50,486 nucleotides of DNA, taken from Syntrophobacterales bacterium. Its GTDB lineage: Bacteria; Desulfobacterota; BSN033; WVXP01; G020346125. The notes beneath the pieces were generated by a model, which worked only from the letters and a program-made list of their open reading frames with translations, was not told the DNA's origin and did no database searches. The stretch lies in NCBI GenBank assembly GCA_020346125.1, contig CP070774.1:2006290-2056775 (forward strand), read 5' to 3'. Shown piece by piece: positions 439 to 6,851 of this stretch. The position numbers were made by a program, and so were the translations under genes. Position 1 is the stretch's first letter. The number at the start of each line of letters is the position of its first letter.

Positions 439-696
439 TTCGGATGCGGCGCTGCCAGTACGACGAGCTCCATTATCACCGAAAAGATCAAGGGAAGGGA
501 CATTGAGGAAGCCTTAAGGATTTCAGGTGAAACGGCCAAGGACATATTGAGCCAATCGCCCAAGGATAAGGTTACCTGCTTCACCTTAGCCGCCAATGCA
601 TTGAGGCTGGCCATAGAGGAATACCGCTGCAACAAACAAGAAATCCATGAGAAGGGGGGGATGAGTTCGGAGGATCTGAAAAAAGCCATCTCTTGA
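439..696 (+). pseudogene. iscU: IscU/NifU-N Fe-S scaffold, C-terminal fragment
   Basis: Frame 1 reads FGCGAASTTSSIITEKIKGRDIEEALRIS..KVTCFTLAANALRLAIEEY, resembling FGCGAAIATSS..KMHCSVLAEEAL; no start codon or N-terminal half. Confidence 0.7.
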
Positions 697-778
697 GCTG
701 GAATTTGTTATATAATAGTATTGGTATAGTTTTTGCAAATTAATAGAATCAGAAGTCAGTAACGGAAAGGGAATCTCA

Positions 779-1897
779 ATGAGAAGGATGGTATTGCTGA
801 TCGTTATGTTTGGGCTGTTGGCCCTTTGCCAACCCATGGGAGCGGGTGAATTGACGATCATCTATTCCAATGATACGGGTGGAGTAATTGATCCCTGTCC
901 CACTTGAAGGAACAAGTTTATAGGTGGGCTGGCCCGGCGGGTCACCTTTATAAAGGAGCTCAAAAAAGAAGGAAAAGGGGCCCTCATCCTCGACGCGGGC
1001 AACCTTTTCTTTAAGGGCAAGGGCTCTCCCTCTTCTCCCGATAAGGATAAAGCCATATTGATCGCACGGGCTTATCACCGCATGGGATATCAGGTCGTCA
1101 ATATCGGCTCTGATGACCTTTCGGCCGGAATTGAATTCCTGAGGGAATTACAGAGGGAGATTCATGTACCCCTCATATCTGCCAACCTCCTGGATCAACA
1201 GGATGGAAAGCCGATCTTCAAATCCCATATGGTATTGGATTTAGGTGGGATAAGAGCCGGCGTTTTCGGCCTGACCTCTGATGTTCGCCACAATAAAGGG
1301 GTTACCCCTAAAGGATATGTTATATCCAATCCGATAACGGCGGCGAAGAGGGTTGTGGCCGAACTTGGGAAGGATTGTGATATCATCGTAGCCTTGAGCA
1401 ACCAGGGCTCTCTTAAGGAATATACCAAGCTCGTTCAACAGATGGAGGAGATTCAGTTCATCTTTGGGAGTGGAGGTAGGGGAACCTATCATCAAACCAT
1501 TCGATCCGATAGAAACTGGAAGGCATTTCTCTTTCGGGCTCGTACAAAAGGGAGGTACCTGGGAAGGATCGACTTGAAAGTACTAAAGGGATCCCGTGAT
1601 TTCGTTGACCTCAGCCGCAAGGCCAATATAGAGGGACAAATCAACATGATCGAAAAGCAATTAGATTCCTACCGAAGGGGAACGGGAAGGGCCAAATCCA
1701 TTCCCCGGGATAAGAGGGAGGAGTATATCAAGAAATTGGAGAAATTTATGAATAGGTCCGAGGCCCGATTAAGTAAGTTGGAGAGGGATGCTAGCTTGAA
1801 TAGCACCTTTACTAATACTATCGTTCCCCTCGATAATAAGGTAAAGGAGGATCCCGAGATGATAGAATGGGTAGATCAGTTCAAGAGGGGCCAATGA
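779..1897 (+). CDS. UshA-like (5'-nucleotidase fold) exported probable selenoprotein, 372 aa, Sec encoded by UGA at 905-907 (CPTU motif)
   Basis: ATG 779 with purine-rich RBS is in frame with ORF 1058-1897; signal peptide, then ELTIIYSNDTGGVIDPCPT-UGA-RNKFIGGLARRVTFIKEL..LILDAGNLFF, a continuous UshA N-terminal fold across the single UGA. Confidence 0.85.
918..953 (+). promoter_or_regulatory. Putative bacterial SECIS hairpin
   Basis: TTATAGGTG(918-926)...CACCTTTATAA(943-953) stem with GC-rich apical part, beginning about 11 nt after the UGA; folded by eye only. Confidence 0.55.
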
Positions 1898-2036
1898 ATA
1901 GGCGTGAATGTTACCCCCACGTGGGCTTTATGGAAAGAGCGGACAGCGAAATAATCCTCAAACTATGGGAATATAAGAAACCCATGATTACCTATTTCGG
2001 TTTTTTCAGTGGGATCTTTTCTTCCCTAAACAACTA

Positions 2037-2534
2037 ATGGCTGCAAAAGGGAAAGTTCCAATCTTTCACCAAGTAATCATCATACTTCTCTTTTCCCTTG
2101 GAATGGGATTGATAACCAATGCGCTTCGATCACCCCCCCTTCCCTTAATTGGAAATTGGTTTAAAGGGACTTCGTCATTAAACGTGGGAAGGAATATTTC
2201 CACGGTTTCCATAGAGGAGGCCGTGGTAAAATTTATAACCCAGGATGCCCTTTTTCTCGATGCTCGTTCAAGAGCTGATTACCAATTGGGGCATATAAAA
2301 GGAGCCTTGAATTTACCCGTTCATGATGAGGATTTCGGCGAAAGGCTTCATGAGTTCGTGTTAGAAGTGAATCATGACAGGGAACTAATCGTCTATTGCG
2401 AAGATATCGACCCTACCTTAAGCCCTGAACTTGCCTCCATATTAACAAGCATGGGATACAAGAAGGTTAAAATCCTTGCCAATGGGTGGAGCGAATGGAA
2501 TGTGGCGGCAATGCCTTTCGAAGTGGATAGATAA
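2037..2534 (+). CDS. Membrane-anchored rhodanese-like domain protein
   Basis: N-terminal TM helix; FLDARSRADYQLGHIKGALNLP, IVYC, LANGWSEW rhodanese motifs. Confidence 0.85.
   Translation: MAAKGKVPIFHQVIIILLFSLGMGLITNALRSPPLPLIGNWFKGTSSLNVGRNISTVSIEEAVVKFITQDALFLDARSRADYQLGHIKGALNLPVHDEDFGERLHEFVLEVNHDRELIVYCEDIDPTLSPELASILTSMGYKKVKILANGWSEWNVAAMPFEVDR
2067..2155 (+). repeat. 89-bp exact direct repeat, copy 2
   Basis: Identical to 24-112. Confidence 0.9.
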
Positions 2535-2543
2535 ATAGATAAT

Positions 2544-3029
2544 ATGAAGGGATTGATACGTTCCGTCGTTAACCTTTATACCAGCCCCTATGCTTCCGTC
2601 ATATTCCGCTGGGCCGTGGGCTTGATCTTCATCTATGCCAGCATGGATAAACTACTTCACCCCTCGGCCTTTGCAGTTGCTGTGTATAATTACAAGATCC
2701 TTCCAGGAAGCCTCATTAACCTGGTTGCGATAACGCTCCCCTGGGTGGAGCTGATCTGTGGAATCCTCCTTCTCATCGGTTTGTTTCCCCGAGCAACAGC
2801 CCTTATCCTGAGTATTCTGCTCTTACTCTTCTTCTCCGCTCTCTCGATAAGCCTCTACCGAGGCATCGATATCAGTTGCGGTTGTTTCGCAGTAACTACA
2901 ACTGTGGATAAAATTGGCATCTCCTACATGGTAAGAGACCTTCTTGTCCTGGCGATGAGCGTTCAAATCCTATTCTTCGACGGAAACCTCATGAGCATAG
3001 AACGTCTTCTCCCTACCAGTTACCGTTGA
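2544..3029 (+). CDS. MauE/DoxX family membrane protein
   Basis: Four TM helices; GLIFIYASMDK, LPWVELICG, RGIDISCGCF and RDL motifs. Confidence 0.85.
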   Translation: MKGLIRSVVNLYTSPYASVIFRWAVGLIFIYASMDKLLHPSAFAVAVYNYKILPGSLINLVAITLPWVELICGILLLIGLFPRATALILSILLLLFFSALSISLYRGIDISCGCFAVTTTVDKIGISYMVRDLLVLAMSVQILFFDGNLMSIERLLPTSYR

Positions 3030-3119
3030 TTGATACAAATTTCTTGAATTTTTTAATGTCTGAAGTTAACCTTTCGCCATGGTATCCGACGGATAATGCT
3101 AATCAGTATGGAGTCAAAC

Positions 3120-3911
3120 ATGAAGGATTTTTTTCGAAAATTAGCGGATATTGAAAAAGAGGGAAGACGGGCAGCCCTTGCCATCGTCGTAAGTACCAAA
3201 GGATCAACCCCGAGAAAGGCCGGGACCAAGATGATCATTATGGAGGATGGGAGTACCTTCGGAACCCTGGGAGGTGGCGGTCTGGAGAAAAAAGTTATCG
3301 AGGAATCCCTCGAGGCCCTGAAAGGGGGAGAAGCGAGACTGACATCCTTTAATCTGGATGGAACGAAGGGAAACCTGGACATGATGTGTGGGGGCGAGAT
3401 TGAGATCTACATCGAGCCAATTCACCAACCGGAGAAACTCATCATATTCGGTGCTGGTCATATTACAAAGGCTTTGGCACCTCTGATGCAGTCAGTTGGC
3501 TTTCGGCTAACCGTGGTAGAAGATAACCCGGAAGTGCTGGGAGAAGATCAGCTTGCGGATATGGAAGGGCTCATTTCGGAAAATATGGAGTCTTATGCAG
3601 AAAGGCTTCCCCCTGAAAGCAACACATATATCGTACTTCTTACCAGAGGCTTTTCAACGGACAGGGCCATTCTTGAACACCTCATCGGAAAGGACTTTCG
3701 CTATGTGGGGATGATCGGAAGCCGGAAAAAGATTAGGACCATCAAGGAGGAGTTGATCTCGAAGGGAATTGAAAAGGAGTATTTCTCCAAACTCTACGCT
3801 CCCATAGGCCTTGATATAGGAGCAGAGACGCCTGAGGAGATTGCCCTCAGTATCGCCGCTGAAATCATCTCTGTTAGAAAAGGCAAGTCCATGTATCGAG
3901 GAAAGGGGTAA
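3120..3911 (+). CDS. XdhC/CoxI family molybdoenzyme accessory protein
   Basis: GSTPRKAGTKM, GTLGGG, MMCGG, GAGHI, YVGMIGS, APIGLDIGAETPEEIALSIAAEI; GGAG RBS before ATG 3120. Confidence 0.9.
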   Translation: MKDFFRKLADIEKEGRRAALAIVVSTKGSTPRKAGTKMIIMEDGSTFGTLGGGGLEKKVIEESLEALKGGEARLTSFNLDGTKGNLDMMCGGEIEIYIEPIHQPEKLIIFGAGHITKALAPLMQSVGFRLTVVEDNPEVLGEDQLADMEGLISENMESYAERLPPESNTYIVLLTRGFSTDRAILEHLIGKDFRYVGMIGSRKKIRTIKEELISKGIEKEYFSKLYAPIGLDIGAETPEEIALSIAAEIISVRKGKSMYRGKG

Positions 3912-3921
3912 ATTAAACCTT

Positions 3922-4683
3922 ATGAGTCCGGAAATATTCAAAATTGGCCCCATGAGCATCCGATGGTATGGAGTGCTTATCCTTGCCGGGGTGATCCTCG
4001 GACTTTTCCTCGCGGGACGAGAGGCCAAACGACAGGAGATGCGCATCGAGGTAATCTATGATCTATTCTATTATATGCTTATAAGCGCCATTGTAGGAGC
4101 AAGGCTTTACTATGTCATCTTCTCCTGGGACCTGTACAGAAATAATCTGGGAGGGATCATTGCCTTTTGGCACGGGGGACTCGCAATTCATGGGGCAATT
4201 ATCGGAGGAACTTTTTCAGCGCTGATTTATACCCGCCTGAAGGGGATTTCCTTCTGGAAGGTTGCCGATTGCTGCGCCCCAAGCCTTATCCTCGGCCAGG
4301 CCATTGGGCGCTGGGGTAACTTCTTCAACCAGGAAGCTTATGGAAGGCCGACAGATTTGCCTTGGGGAATTTTCATCGATGAGGCCCACCGACCCTTTCG
4401 ATATATCCAACAGACCCACTTTCACCCTACCTTCCTGTATGAGTCCCTCTGGGATTTTTGCGTATTCCTCTTCTTACTGTGGGGCAGACGGAAAAAGGGC
4501 ATAATCCCGGGCGATGTATTTCTCGCCTATCTCATGCTGTATTCCCTCGGTAGATTCTGGATTGAAGGCCTCAGGATGGATAGCCTGATGTTCGCCGGGT
4601 TTAGAGTCGCCCAGATCGTAAGCCTTTTTCTCATTCTCTGCTCCTCAATAATCTTGATTCAACACCGTAGGGGAAGACAATAA
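3922..4683 (+). CDS. lgt: Prolipoprotein diacylglyceryl transferase
   Basis: IRWYG, GARLYYV, GGLAIHG, GQAIGRWGNFFNQEAYG, HPTFLYES, RFWIEGLR. Confidence 0.95.
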   Translation: MSPEIFKIGPMSIRWYGVLILAGVILGLFLAGREAKRQEMRIEVIYDLFYYMLISAIVGARLYYVIFSWDLYRNNLGGIIAFWHGGLAIHGAIIGGTFSALIYTRLKGISFWKVADCCAPSLILGQAIGRWGNFFNQEAYGRPTDLPWGIFIDEAHRPFRYIQQTHFHPTFLYESLWDFCVFLFLLWGRRKKGIIPGDVFLAYLMLYSLGRFWIEGLRMDSLMFAGFRVAQIVSLFLILCSSIILIQHRRGRQ

Positions 4684-5076
4684 CCTTGCAATCATCACCT
4701 ACATGCTCGAATCGTTTCCAGCATTGCCTTAGCACATAAGACTTTTATATGGAGGAGGAAAAATCGTCCGGATGGATATCCTTTTCCACCATCCTCACTC
4801 TCGGCATGATTTCATCTTTATCTTCGTATTAGATCCTCATCTTCCAAAAATCCTACCTCGAGTATACAGAAGGGAACATCTCATATAAACTCAAGATTCA
4901 GGGCCTGGTGTATCTTAATATCTTAAAATAATACATATTTGTATAGGCCTCTATTGATTGTGGTGGAATTATACAGGAGGCGATCTCGGGGACTCTGGCG
5001 AAAGGTGAATATTCGTTGAGCAGACTCTCTGAAGACTAGATATGAGCAGCCGTAAAGGGTGATTAGATCTCTTAAA

Positions 5077-5105
5077 TTGACTCATAAATTGAAATATATT
5101 ATAGT
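5077..5105 (+). promoter_or_regulatory. Sigma70-type promoter
   Basis: TTGACT-17 nt-TATAGT about 85 nt upstream of the ArnT-like gene. Confidence 0.55.
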
Positions 5106-5189
5106 CTACATCACTTTCCTACCCATTGATGAGTGAGAAAAGCGGGTGAAAATAACTCGAAAGTGTAGACCACCAGTATTAGGGTAAGT

Positions 5190-6851
5190 ATGAGATATCT
5201 ATTATTGAAAATGAGATACCTTGGGTATCATGAGCGAATGGTTATCTTTGTTGTAGGTATTTTGTTACTGCTCCCTTGCATCTGGTCTGAGATGAGCGTT
5301 ACCGGCCAGGATGAATACTTGCTTTCTCTCCGTACGCCCATGGAAACGCTGGAACGCGGCAGTTGGTTTGTGCCATGGGTGAATGGTGAGCCGCGTCTTA
5401 AGAAACCACCTCTGGTTTATTGGGTAATTCTTCTGAGCTACAAGTTGTTCGGAATTAATCTCATTGCCGCAAGACTCGTGGGGGTGCTGTCAGGTGCTGG
5501 GCTTGCTCTGTGCTCTTGTCTTTTATATCGAGAACTTTTTAAGAAAAGTGGCATGCTCGCAGGATTAATCACTTTAGCAACCGTAGCAGTTGCCATTGAG
5601 GGACGCAGGGCTATGCTTGATCTTCCCCTCGCTTTCTTCACATCTATGGCCGTATATTTTGCCCTTAGATGGGGAAAATCGGGGCGCTTGGATTGGATTT
5701 TGTTATCAGCCTTTTCCCTGGGGCTCTCGTTTCTGGTCAAGGGACCTGTAGGATTCATTTTTTTTGGAGCTGCGGCTATTACCGCATTGTTTGTGTTCAG
5801 GAAATGGCGTTTCGCCTTTTCACATTGGTCACAAATAGTGTGGGCGCTCGTTTTACTATTGGCCGTCTGTGCCCCCTGGCCACTAATAATGGCCCATCTT
5901 TGGCCGAACTTCCTTAGCGTTGTCGGTGGGGAAATAGCTGCCAGACGCTTTGGAAACATACGGGTTGGCTCCCCTCTTTCTACTGTGGGCGCAGCGTTAC
6001 TTCTTGTTTTTCCCTGGTCGGTAGTATTGATTGCAGCAGTAGTACGTTCAGTGTACTATGCTCAGCAGACCCCGGCCCGTAAAAATCTCTGGCTTGTGGC
6101 TTGGTTTCTGGGAAGCATAATTCCGTTCTTCTTCATGAAATCATTCGAGCGGTATTTGATGCCGATTATTCCTGCTGCAAGTGTGTTATGTGCTAACTGG
6201 CTTGATGAAGTTGAGGGGATATTGAAAACGAGCCTCTTGCGGATATCCATAACTCTGATTGCATTAGTCGCGGTATTCTTCTGCCTTGCCTTCATATGGT
6301 TTGCTCATGGGCTCCCTATCACATTAATGTGTCTGTTCTTCGTGGGTTTGATGTTTTGGGTCACCTTTGCCAGGGGTGATACACACATGGCCGTTGGCGC
6401 CGTGGCAGTATTACTTGCTTTGATAATGGGAGGTTTATATCCATTCATGGGAATAAATGCTATGCCACGCGATCTCGAGAAGATCGTAGGGCATTCCCCA
6501 GTAGTTGCTTACAATAGCCCACAACCATCCATGCTCTCCATCCGCCTGAAACGAAGCGTCGTTCGAATCCATAAAAAGGATATTCATCTGCTTAAGCACT
6601 TCGACGGTTTTGTTTTTATGAGAGAAATTGATGCTGAAGGATTCGAGGCTCTCGCCAGGGAATTAGATATTCATTACGAGAAGACAGGTCAATTCAAGAC
6701 CTTTTACGCGCGAAAGACATGGGTACGATTTGCCCGTGAGGATGCTACTCTCGATGACTGGAAAAAAGCCATAAAAATGCGATCTATGGAGGATTTGCAG
6801 CCCAGCATCTATTACTATCGCGTGTATCCTAAGATACATCCCGATGAATAG
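5190..6851 (+). CDS. ArnT/PMT-like GT-C membrane glycosyltransferase
   Basis: DE motif, GSWFVPWVNGEPRLKKPPLVYW, AARL, LVKGPVG, RYLMPIIP, many TM helices. Confidence 0.85.
   Translation: MRYLLLKMRYLGYHERMVIFVVGILLLLPCIWSEMSVTGQDEYLLSLRTPMETLERGSWFVPWVNGEPRLKKPPLVYWVILLSYKLFGINLIAARLVGVLSGAGLALCSCLLYRELFKKSGMLAGLITLATVAVAIEGRRAMLDLPLAFFTSMAVYFALRWGKSGRLDWILLSAFSLGLSFLVKGPVGFIFFGAAAITALFVFRKWRFAFSHWSQIVWALVLLLAVCAPWPLIMAHLWPNFLSVVGGEIAARRFGNIRVGSPLSTVGAALLLVFPWSVVLIAAVVRSVYYAQQTPARKNLWLVAWFLGSIIPFFFMKSFERYLMPIIPAASVLCANWLDEVEGILKTSLLRISITLIALVAVFFCLAFIWFAHGLPITLMCLFFVGLMFWVTFARGDTHMAVGAVAVLLALIMGGLYPFMGINAMPRDLEKIVGHSPVVAYNSPQPSMLSIRLKRSVVRIHKKDIHLLKHFDGFVFMREIDAEGFEALARELDIHYEKTGQFKTFYARKTWVRFAREDATLDDWKKAIKMRSMEDLQPSIYYYRVYPKIHPDE

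Follow-up and report, generated by a model that had tools for sequence, protein, structure and literature searches.

A UshA-like selenoprotein gene beside a conserved rhodanese-MauE pair: a candidate facultative periplasmic redox module in a Syntrophobacterales bacterium

In a 50,486-nucleotide stretch of a metagenome-assembled genome of a Syntrophobacterales bacterium (assembly GCA_020346125.1, contig CP070774.1, positions 2,006,290 to 2,056,775; the whole stretch is referred to as the window), a gene for a UshA-like selenoprotein was found upstream of genes for a signal-anchored rhodanese-like protein and a MauE/DoxX family membrane protein. The rhodanese-MauE pair is a strongly conserved unit, and the trio that it forms with the selenoprotein is a real, recurrent, and facultative association of known families. 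The reading that we place first, and to which we give about an even chance, is that the selenoprotein, the rhodanese, and MauE make up a facultative three-part module for periplasmic thiol/selenol redox chemistry, with xdhC and lgt as two unrelated neighbors. Speaking for such a module were the conservation of the pair, a confident model of the rhodanese-MauE complex, the adjacency of the selenoprotein, the invariant residues of MauE, the remodeled nucleotidase site of the selenoprotein, and the thioredoxin-fold and DsbD-type genes that neighbor the pair at other loci. Disulfide formation by MauE has only just been shown, and UshA-like selenoproteins have been listed since 2008 without a function; a rhodanese-like MauE subunit and a recurrent selenoprotein link would give a testable handle on both the periplasmic partner of MauE and the function of UshA-like selenoproteins. 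A literature search found no publication in which MauE is paired with either a rhodanese or a selenoprotein; the trio is new relative to the literature found, and its component families are known.

The rhodanese-MauE pair

The window begins at the start of a contig of a genome that has 49% G+C, that is 76% complete, and whose file joins contigs through 100-N spacers. Following a stretch of gene fragments, there were five co-oriented genes, encoding the UshA-like selenoprotein, the rhodanese, the MauE/DoxX protein, XdhC, and Lgt. The features of the first three genes were as follows (SECIS, selenocysteine insertion sequence; MFE, minimum free energy; AF2, AlphaFold2):

779..1897, + strand: UshA-like selenoprotein gene, short form, motif C40-P-T-U43 (translation with TGA read as U, NCBIfam, AF2, Foldseek)
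905..907, + strand: in-frame TGA, selenocysteine U43 (TGA at the aligned position of all 18 homologues in alignment A1; one TGA in all 8 orthologues of the genus)
917..954, + strand: GC-rich hairpin, candidate SECIS (MFE folds of the genus orthologues)
2037..2534, + strand: signal-anchored, periplasm-facing rhodanese-like protein, conserved partner of MauE (PF00581, adjacency, complex model)
2397..2414, + strand: rhodanese active-site loop C121-E-D-I-D-P126, with Pro at the second Cys of the family (alignment A3, congeners)
2544..3029, + strand: MauE/DoxX family membrane protein, candidate DsbB-like quinone-linked thiol oxidase (PF07291, E value 2.6e-25)
2877..2885, + strand: MauE CXC motif, C112-G-C114 (invariant in alignment A4)

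An initial annotation of this DNA had described an exported CxxU protein, a rhodanese, a MauE/DoxX protein 9 bp further on with a CGC motif, and xdhC, and all of these were found in place. The MauE protein, whose gene starts 9 bases past the rhodanese stop codon, matched PF07291 with 89.6 bits (cut-off, 27; 89.7 bits when the genome was searched) and was the only MauE-family match in this genome. Its C112-G-C114 motif and the residues K36 and E69 were invariant in the 30 sequences of A4, and the CXC motif followed by Phe (F115), together with Lys36 and Glu69, agreed with the motifs of the MauE family. The rhodanese matched PF00581 with 62.9 bits (cut-off, 22.2), has an N-terminal hydrophobic anchor, and contains one Cys, C121, in the sequence YCEDIDP. 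The profile match and the position of C121 in a nearly invariant Cys column placed it in the rhodanese family; furthermore, the anchor and the location directly upstream of mauE placed it among the MauE-associated rhodaneses.

A rhodanese gene lay directly upstream of the MauE gene at 26 of 29 loci in the phylum. In a metagenome set made up of the 80 loci most like the MauE of the window, the same arrangement was found at 66 loci, or at 59 of the 68 with at least 500 nt of upstream sequence. Modeling of the MauE-rhodanese complex gave an interaction prediction score from aligned errors (ipSAE) of 0.85, against 0.01 for the best control. Among solved complexes, 116 of 157 reached that mark, as did 2 of 215 mismatched pairs. 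Contact agreement among the runs was at least 81%, the predicted local distance difference test (pLDDT) score of the partner was at least 84, and the confident contacts joined rhodanese anchor residues 4-42 with MauE residues 37-88. The model supports binding of the rhodanese to MauE through its membrane anchor, and this predicted binding is supported in turn by the conserved adjacency of the genes.

Both Cys columns of the C-x4-C loop were at least 90% Cys in the partner rhodaneses of A3 (28 sequences), and the loop Y-C-x4-C was present in 53 of the 66 metagenome partners. The single Cys noted in the initial annotation is thus a property of the window protein and not a family trait, since at least 90% of partners have the second Cys at the Pro126 column. 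One or both loop Cys were missing, with the pair retained, in 11 of the 64 partners that could be assessed among the 66. Loci at which the pair was kept despite loss of loop Cys included L063 (G006), L152, L159, L211, L151, L155, L163, and L185. In such proteins, the role of the rhodanese domain may be that of an adaptor and not of a redox carrier.

The neighbors of the pair were tallied at the 40 of the 80 metagenome loci that were well flanked, that is, with at least 600 nt on both sides of the pair. They included thioredoxin-fold proteins (10 of 40 loci), DUF1573 proteins (6 of 40), DsbD/CcdA-type proteins (DsbD_TM; 4 of 40), and SBF transporters (4 of 40); in addition, an ArsP-type permease (ArsP_1) stood beside the pair at 4 of 20 phylum loci. 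A DUF1573 (Ig-like) protein gene immediately adjoined the pair at L148, L149, L154, L182, L204, and L214.

The UshA-like selenoprotein

The open reading frames at 779-907 and 1058-1897 lie in one frame, and reading the TGA as selenocysteine gave a protein of 372 amino acids, with a hydrophobic N terminus followed by Cys40-Pro-Thr-Sec43. The columns of C40 and U43 were invariant in the 19 sequences of A1, and a relative at L056 has Cys in place of Sec. Of the 401 genomes of the phylum that were sampled, 191 had homologues, with 277 matches in all, and exactly one in-frame TGA was present in 140 of 150 among the matches listed. The genome has selB above the cut-off and, at a contig edge (G000:C1:1447933-1448172), a selD fragment that spans profile positions 1-83, includes an in-frame TGA, and ends at a 100-N spacer; this selenophosphate synthetase is likely to be a selenoprotein as well, truncated by the contig end. 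A tRNA-Sec was not found in this genome, which is 76% complete with 20 tRNAs assembled. The conserved TGA, matched by Sec or Cys in the aligned homologues, together with the Sec machinery represented by selB and the selD fragment, identified the product as a genuine selenoprotein. In most of the eight orthologues of the genus, MFE folds formed a hairpin around GCCCGGCGGGC, and relatives had a 7-bp stem with a GGUCUG loop downstream of the TGA. The fold energy after the TGA was no better than that of shuffled sequence (z = -0.20), and the candidate SECIS hairpin overlaps a conserved GGLARR coding stretch.

Two NCBIfam families of UshA-like selenoproteins were considered. Against NF041198 (PCGU), the protein scored 225.1 bits (cut-off, 275) and its motif is C-x-x-U rather than C-x-U, which leaves it outside that family. 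The CxxU motif of NF049981 (family 2) is present as CPTU; the score of 107.9 bits, below the cut-off of 140, was split over two stretches, and the better one covers profile positions 1-90 of 262. The family was listed in a 2008 ocean survey (Global Ocean Sampling; PMC2398784) as “COG0737 UshA-like” and appears in later tables (PMC13188914 and PMC9312934), and the entries in these listings give no function or partner.

The AF2 model of the selenoprotein had a pLDDT of 85.9, and its top Foldseek match was an Escherichia coli 5'-nucleotidase (E value, 7.8e-20; template modeling score, 0.63); phmmer likewise matched a 5'-nucleotidase (E value, 6.1e-14), over an N-terminal metallophosphatase fold. 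At the DxH, GD, and GNHE motifs and the later His, which we take to be the metal ligands of 5'-nucleotidases, the window protein has DTG, GN, GSDD, and Asn, respectively. With these motifs replaced and the C-terminal substrate domain missing (the protein ends at 372 amino acids), it does not belong to the UshA metallophosphoesterases. The Cys-x-x-Sec pair sits in the loop after the first metal-binding motif. The C-x-U (PCGU) relatives in A1 (L045, L047, L048, and L050) carry a C-terminal domain with four CxxCH heme motifs, identified as Cytochrome_C554 in Pfam, which the window protein lacks. Because the metal motifs are replaced, the nucleotidase C-terminal domain is missing, and relatives carry a heme domain, the sequences point to a redox rather than a hydrolytic function for the UshA-like family. 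A distant resemblance to SoxB, together with the arsenic-type genes next to the pair at other loci, makes thiosulfate, polysulfide, selenite, and arsenic species conceivable substrates.

Linkage of the selenoprotein gene to the pair

A UshA-like gene lay within 400 nt of the pair at 9 of the 80 metagenome loci and at 6 of the 40 well-flanked loci, where a rough estimate from the 277 UshA-like matches in 401 genomes gave a chance expectation of about 0.02 of 40. The linked genes included CPTU short forms, PCGU forms with the four-heme cytochrome, and PCGU lipoprotein-like forms, and they occurred in two orders, before the rhodanese gene or after the MauE gene. A TGA was present in all eight linked genes whose N terminus was on the contig, and L137 contributed a C-terminal end only. 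The linkage between selenoprotein and pair has outlasted rearrangement and domain change. A genus-specific coincidence had been considered as the source of the adjacency in the window and was dropped, given the same linkage at metagenome loci, in several subtypes and two orders.

In the G400 lineage, a UshA-rhodanese arrangement and a MauE fragment stood at separate contig ends; in L138, a metagenome relative of that lineage, the three genes were contiguous, which completes the split contigs of G400. At L144, L148, L149, and L175, the cytochrome-fused PCGU form directly followed rhodanese-MauE, and the rhodanese had no loop Cys.

A selenoprotein orthologue with 63-71% identity and one TGA was present in all eight genomes of the genus. 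The pair lay between the selenoprotein gene and xdhC in the window, in G375, and in G448, and the contig of G446 ends inside mauE. Within the genus, identity was 59-65% for the rhodanese, the least conserved of the five proteins, and 72-85% for MauE. Clustering of the three families in other genomes, on which the initial annotation had made its proposal depend, was seen at the 9 metagenome loci, in the G400 lineage, and in 4 of the 8 genomes of the genus.

Contigs from three coded studies spanned both the ushA-rhodanese and the rhodanese-mauE junctions, and the gene arrangement is therefore not an assembly artifact. These junction-spanning contigs were short and uninformative on pair-less variants within the same samples; the few “skip” joints were single low-depth contigs and were not used.

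Proposed mechanism

MauE would be a DsbB-like membrane enzyme whose periplasmic Cys-Gly-Cys passes electrons to quinone, as suggested by preprint data on other MauE proteins, in which complementation was combined with docking. That preprint (Gonzalez et al., bioRxiv 10.64898/2026.03.05.709764) reports that MauE proteins of two other species replaced DsbB in E. coli, that the CXC motif was required, and that MauE docked quinone; it describes a conserved Lys and Glu on MauE helices 1 and 2 and a Phe after the CXC, and it proposes a thioredoxin-fold intermediary (DsbA or MauD). Neither “rhodanese” nor any word beginning “selen” occurs in its main text. In the complex model, the rhodanese-like protein appears as a dedicated subunit of MauE, its N-terminal helix packing on MauE helices 2 and 3, and the rhodanese domain would thereby be held at the periplasmic face. 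The UshA-like selenoprotein would be a recurrent client or partner, whose Cys/Sec center the pair may oxidize or recycle and thereby couple to the quinone pool. In this genome, exchange would proceed by a single-thiol route or directly from MauE, because the rhodanese of the window keeps one Cys.

The extracytoplasmic thiol/selenol redox role put forward in the initial annotation agrees with the replacement of DsbB through the CXC motif described in the preprint text. Thiol/selenol-disulfide exchange is more likely than sulfur transfer, because the preprint reports that MauE can replace DsbB. Persulfide carriage by the rhodanese, which had also been suggested, was not favored, given that most members of the family have a C-x4-C dithiol in the loop and that several lineages have no Cys there at all.

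Several known systems resemble parts of the locus. The MauE pathway shares PF07291, the CXC-Phe motif, and the Lys/Glu pair (K36 and E69), and the thioredoxin-fold and DsbD-type neighbors at other loci fit a DsbB-like role; the locus differs from that pathway in having a signal-anchored rhodanese-like protein as the conserved partner and a selenoprotein as a recurrent neighbor, and the activity of the window MauE is putative. With the UshA-like selenoproteins of NF041198 and NF049981, the window protein shares an exported 5'-nucleotidase-like character, a Sec close after an N-terminal Cys, and a conserved TGA, the CxxU motif being that of family 2; unlike them, it falls below both cut-offs, and it is without the four-heme cytochrome domain of the PCGU relatives. 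E. coli UshA and the periplasmic 5'-nucleotidases (PDB 1ush and 2z1a) have the same N-terminal metallophosphatase fold, whereas in the window protein the motifs are replaced, the C-terminal nucleotide-binding domain is absent, and a Cys/Sec pair has been gained.

Among the NCBIfam matches of the window rhodanese, TsoB (NF045694) was in the top two (E value, 1.5e-12; 46.4 bits against a cut-off of 805), and NF041203 scored about equally. A table in PMC13188914 lists TsoB as a rhodanese/DsbD fusion-like selenoprotein with UxxxxU. Its rhodanese with a two-chalcogen x4 loop, joined to a membrane thiol-redox module, parallels the usual combination of a C-x4-C rhodanese and MauE; unlike TsoB, the proteins studied here are separate, the partner is MauE rather than DsbD-like, and the loop has one Cys and no Sec. 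The proposed logic of a quinone-linked membrane oxidase with a periplasmic partner is that of DsbB-DsbA and VKOR-thioredoxin, which belong to other protein families; DsbB and VKOR were not found in the five genomes of the genus that were searched.

A wider generalization is offered tentatively, since we hold it to be unlikely: UshA-like selenoproteins would be widespread redox enzymes of the periplasm with a disarmed 5'-nucleotidase fold as scaffold, their Cys-Sec pair would be cycled by a fused multiheme cytochrome or by a MauE-rhodanese oxidase, and rhodanese-MauE would be an unrecognized two-subunit alternative to DsbB-DsbA with a non-thioredoxin partner.

Evidence against a coupled module and alternative explanations

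A number of observations weigh against coupling of the three proteins in one module. The pair was missing in four of the eight genomes of the genus (G351, G445, G447, and G449), with the selenoprotein full length and TGA-bearing, and a genome search found no MauE-family match anywhere in these four. Because pair-less genomes keep the selenoprotein, the pair is dispensable for the selenoprotein in this genus, and the dependence of the selenoprotein on the pair that the initial annotation had implied did not hold. At 32 UshA-like loci outside the genus, a rhodanese gene lay beside the UshA-like gene only in G400, and MauE was present in none of these neighborhoods. Among the 401 genomes, 66 had both families, 125 had UshA-like proteins only, 90 had MauE only, and 120 had neither (odds ratio, 0.70), and there was thus no positive phyletic co-occurrence. 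Approximately 85% of rhodanese-MauE pairs had no UshA-like neighbor. The MauE proteins of trio loci grouped together on a quickly built tree, which showed 3 label changes and left a single origin possible, so that the 9 linked loci are not 9 independent events; this tree left out 6 of the 80 metagenome matches, L138 included, because their translations were short or contained a stop. In the window itself, the gap between the selenoprotein and rhodanese genes is 139 bases. Furthermore, the confident interface of the complex model comprises the membrane anchor and not the Cys residues, and the Pro126 of the window rhodanese at the second-Cys column excludes it from the C-x4-C group. Because the window protein is without the second Cys and the cytochrome-fused trio is without loop Cys, the rhodanese Cys is not an obligatory relay step.

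In one alternative explanation, the genes would be neighbors without specific coupling, with rhodanese-MauE acting as a generalist former of disulfides and the selenoprotein acting independently and tending to sit among envelope redox genes. This explanation, which we consider somewhat unlikely, is favored by the variety of genes beside the pair (thioredoxin-fold, DUF1573, SBF, DsbD_TM, and ArsP_1), by the description of MauE as a generalist in bioRxiv 10.64898/2026.03.05.709764, by the persistence of the selenoprotein in the four MauE-less congeners, and by the lack of a positive phyletic association. It is opposed by the adjacency at 6 of the 40 well-flanked loci, which was far above the rough chance estimate and which spans several UshA-like subtypes and both gene orders. 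In addition, searches of five genomes of the genus (G000, G351, G375, G447, and G449; completeness, 76-99%), three of which are also without MauE, returned no match to DsbB or VKOR; apparently, this genus gets by with none of the three known enzymes for periplasmic disulfide formation, which argues against the pair being an essential general oxidase here.

Alternatively, the locus could be a decaying remnant in a genus that is losing the module, the window rhodanese, with Pro in place of its second Cys, no longer being a working relay. Deletion of the pair in half of the genomes of the genus, with a rhodanese pseudogene remnant in one of them (residues 1-38 and 128-160 in G445), fits such decay, as do the low conservation of the rhodanese within the genus and the loop YCEDIDP of the window, which stands against the YCDGxxC of three congeners (YCDGIACT, YCDGIGCP, and YCDGIDCS). 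We nevertheless regard decay as improbable: both open reading frames are intact, MauE keeps its CGC, K36, and E69, the anchor interface was predicted with high confidence, strains of approximately 95% identity from other coded studies carry the rhodanese-mauE junction, and the metagenome partners that retain the pair without one or both loop Cys imply that loss of Cys need not mean loss of function.

The genus amounts to a natural experiment: the selenoprotein is kept in sister genomes whether they have the pair or not, and in one copy of the rhodanese a Cys is gone. The contrast shows that the coupling is conditional, and it points to residues worth testing.

xdhC, lgt, and an improbable sulfur or selenium transfer chain

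The two genes downstream of the trio were as follows:

3096..3911, + strand: xdhC, neighbor outside the module (PF13478, PF02625)
3922..4683, + strand: lgt (prolipoprotein diacylglyceryl transferase), housekeeping neighbor (PF01790, E value 1.2e-82; TIGR00544, 233.9 bits)

The XdhC protein scored above the cut-offs of both PF02625 and PF13478 (79.7 and 134.6 bits, respectively), which assigns it to the family; against the equivalog models, it remained below cut-off (TIGR02964, 150.8 against 161.6 bits; NF045664, 247.8 against 350 bits), and among the NCBIfam matches listed for XdhC there was none to the selenium-dependent hydroxylase accessory family. An xdhC gene stood beside the pair at 0 of the 80 metagenome loci and at none of the loci from other genera in two surveys (28 and 20 loci, respectively), and it was present at 0 of the 32 UshA-like loci outside the genus. 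Next to lgt, xdhC kept its place in every genome of the genus in which the contig permitted a view, whether the pair was present or not. The inclusion of xdhC in the system, as proposed initially, was therefore abandoned: xdhC is outside the module, is found at this locus only in this genus, and marks the far border of an insertion/deletion site.

Elsewhere, both rhodaneses and XdhC proteins take part in sulfur handling. A further reading is a chain for the transfer of sulfur or selenium, in which a persulfide or perselenide on the rhodanese would be passed to XdhC and used for a molybdenum cofactor in sulfurated or selenated form. Such a chain fits the co-orientation of the genes and the tight xdhC-lgt spacing but is very improbable, being largely refuted by the lack of xdhC at pair loci and UshA-like loci outside the genus, with further points against it in the probably cytoplasmic location of XdhC (which is without a signal-like N terminus, whereas the topology of the other three proteins suggests that they face the periplasm), in the lack of a molybdoenzyme gene in the window, and in the lack of a listed match of XdhC to the selenium-dependent hydroxylase accessory family.

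Remainder of the window

The gene content of the rest of the window was housekeeping, with genes for glycosyltransferases, dksA, polA, heme synthesis, and secA, and included neither molybdoenzyme genes nor selenium genes. A promoter and terminator scan of positions 600-5300 gave counts not above those of shuffled sequences and no terminator-like site on the + strand in the gaps among the five genes. An Rfam search returned two tRNAs only, both far from the locus.

Bases 1-139 of the window are a 92% identical copy of the 5' end of the rhodanese gene (2044-2182), covering the membrane anchor. Contigs of runs X1, X4, and X6 agreed with the window from approximately base 141 and diverged before it, with loose ends; this duplicate could reflect either an assembly join or variation in the population. 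Positions 140-700 hold decayed gene fragments, among them a frameshifted, hexapeptide-repeat, cysE-like fragment at 199-402 (PF00132) and a NifU/IscU-like C-terminal piece that was read by eye only. Bases 439-675 have 76% identity to a stretch of the genome near 809,688.

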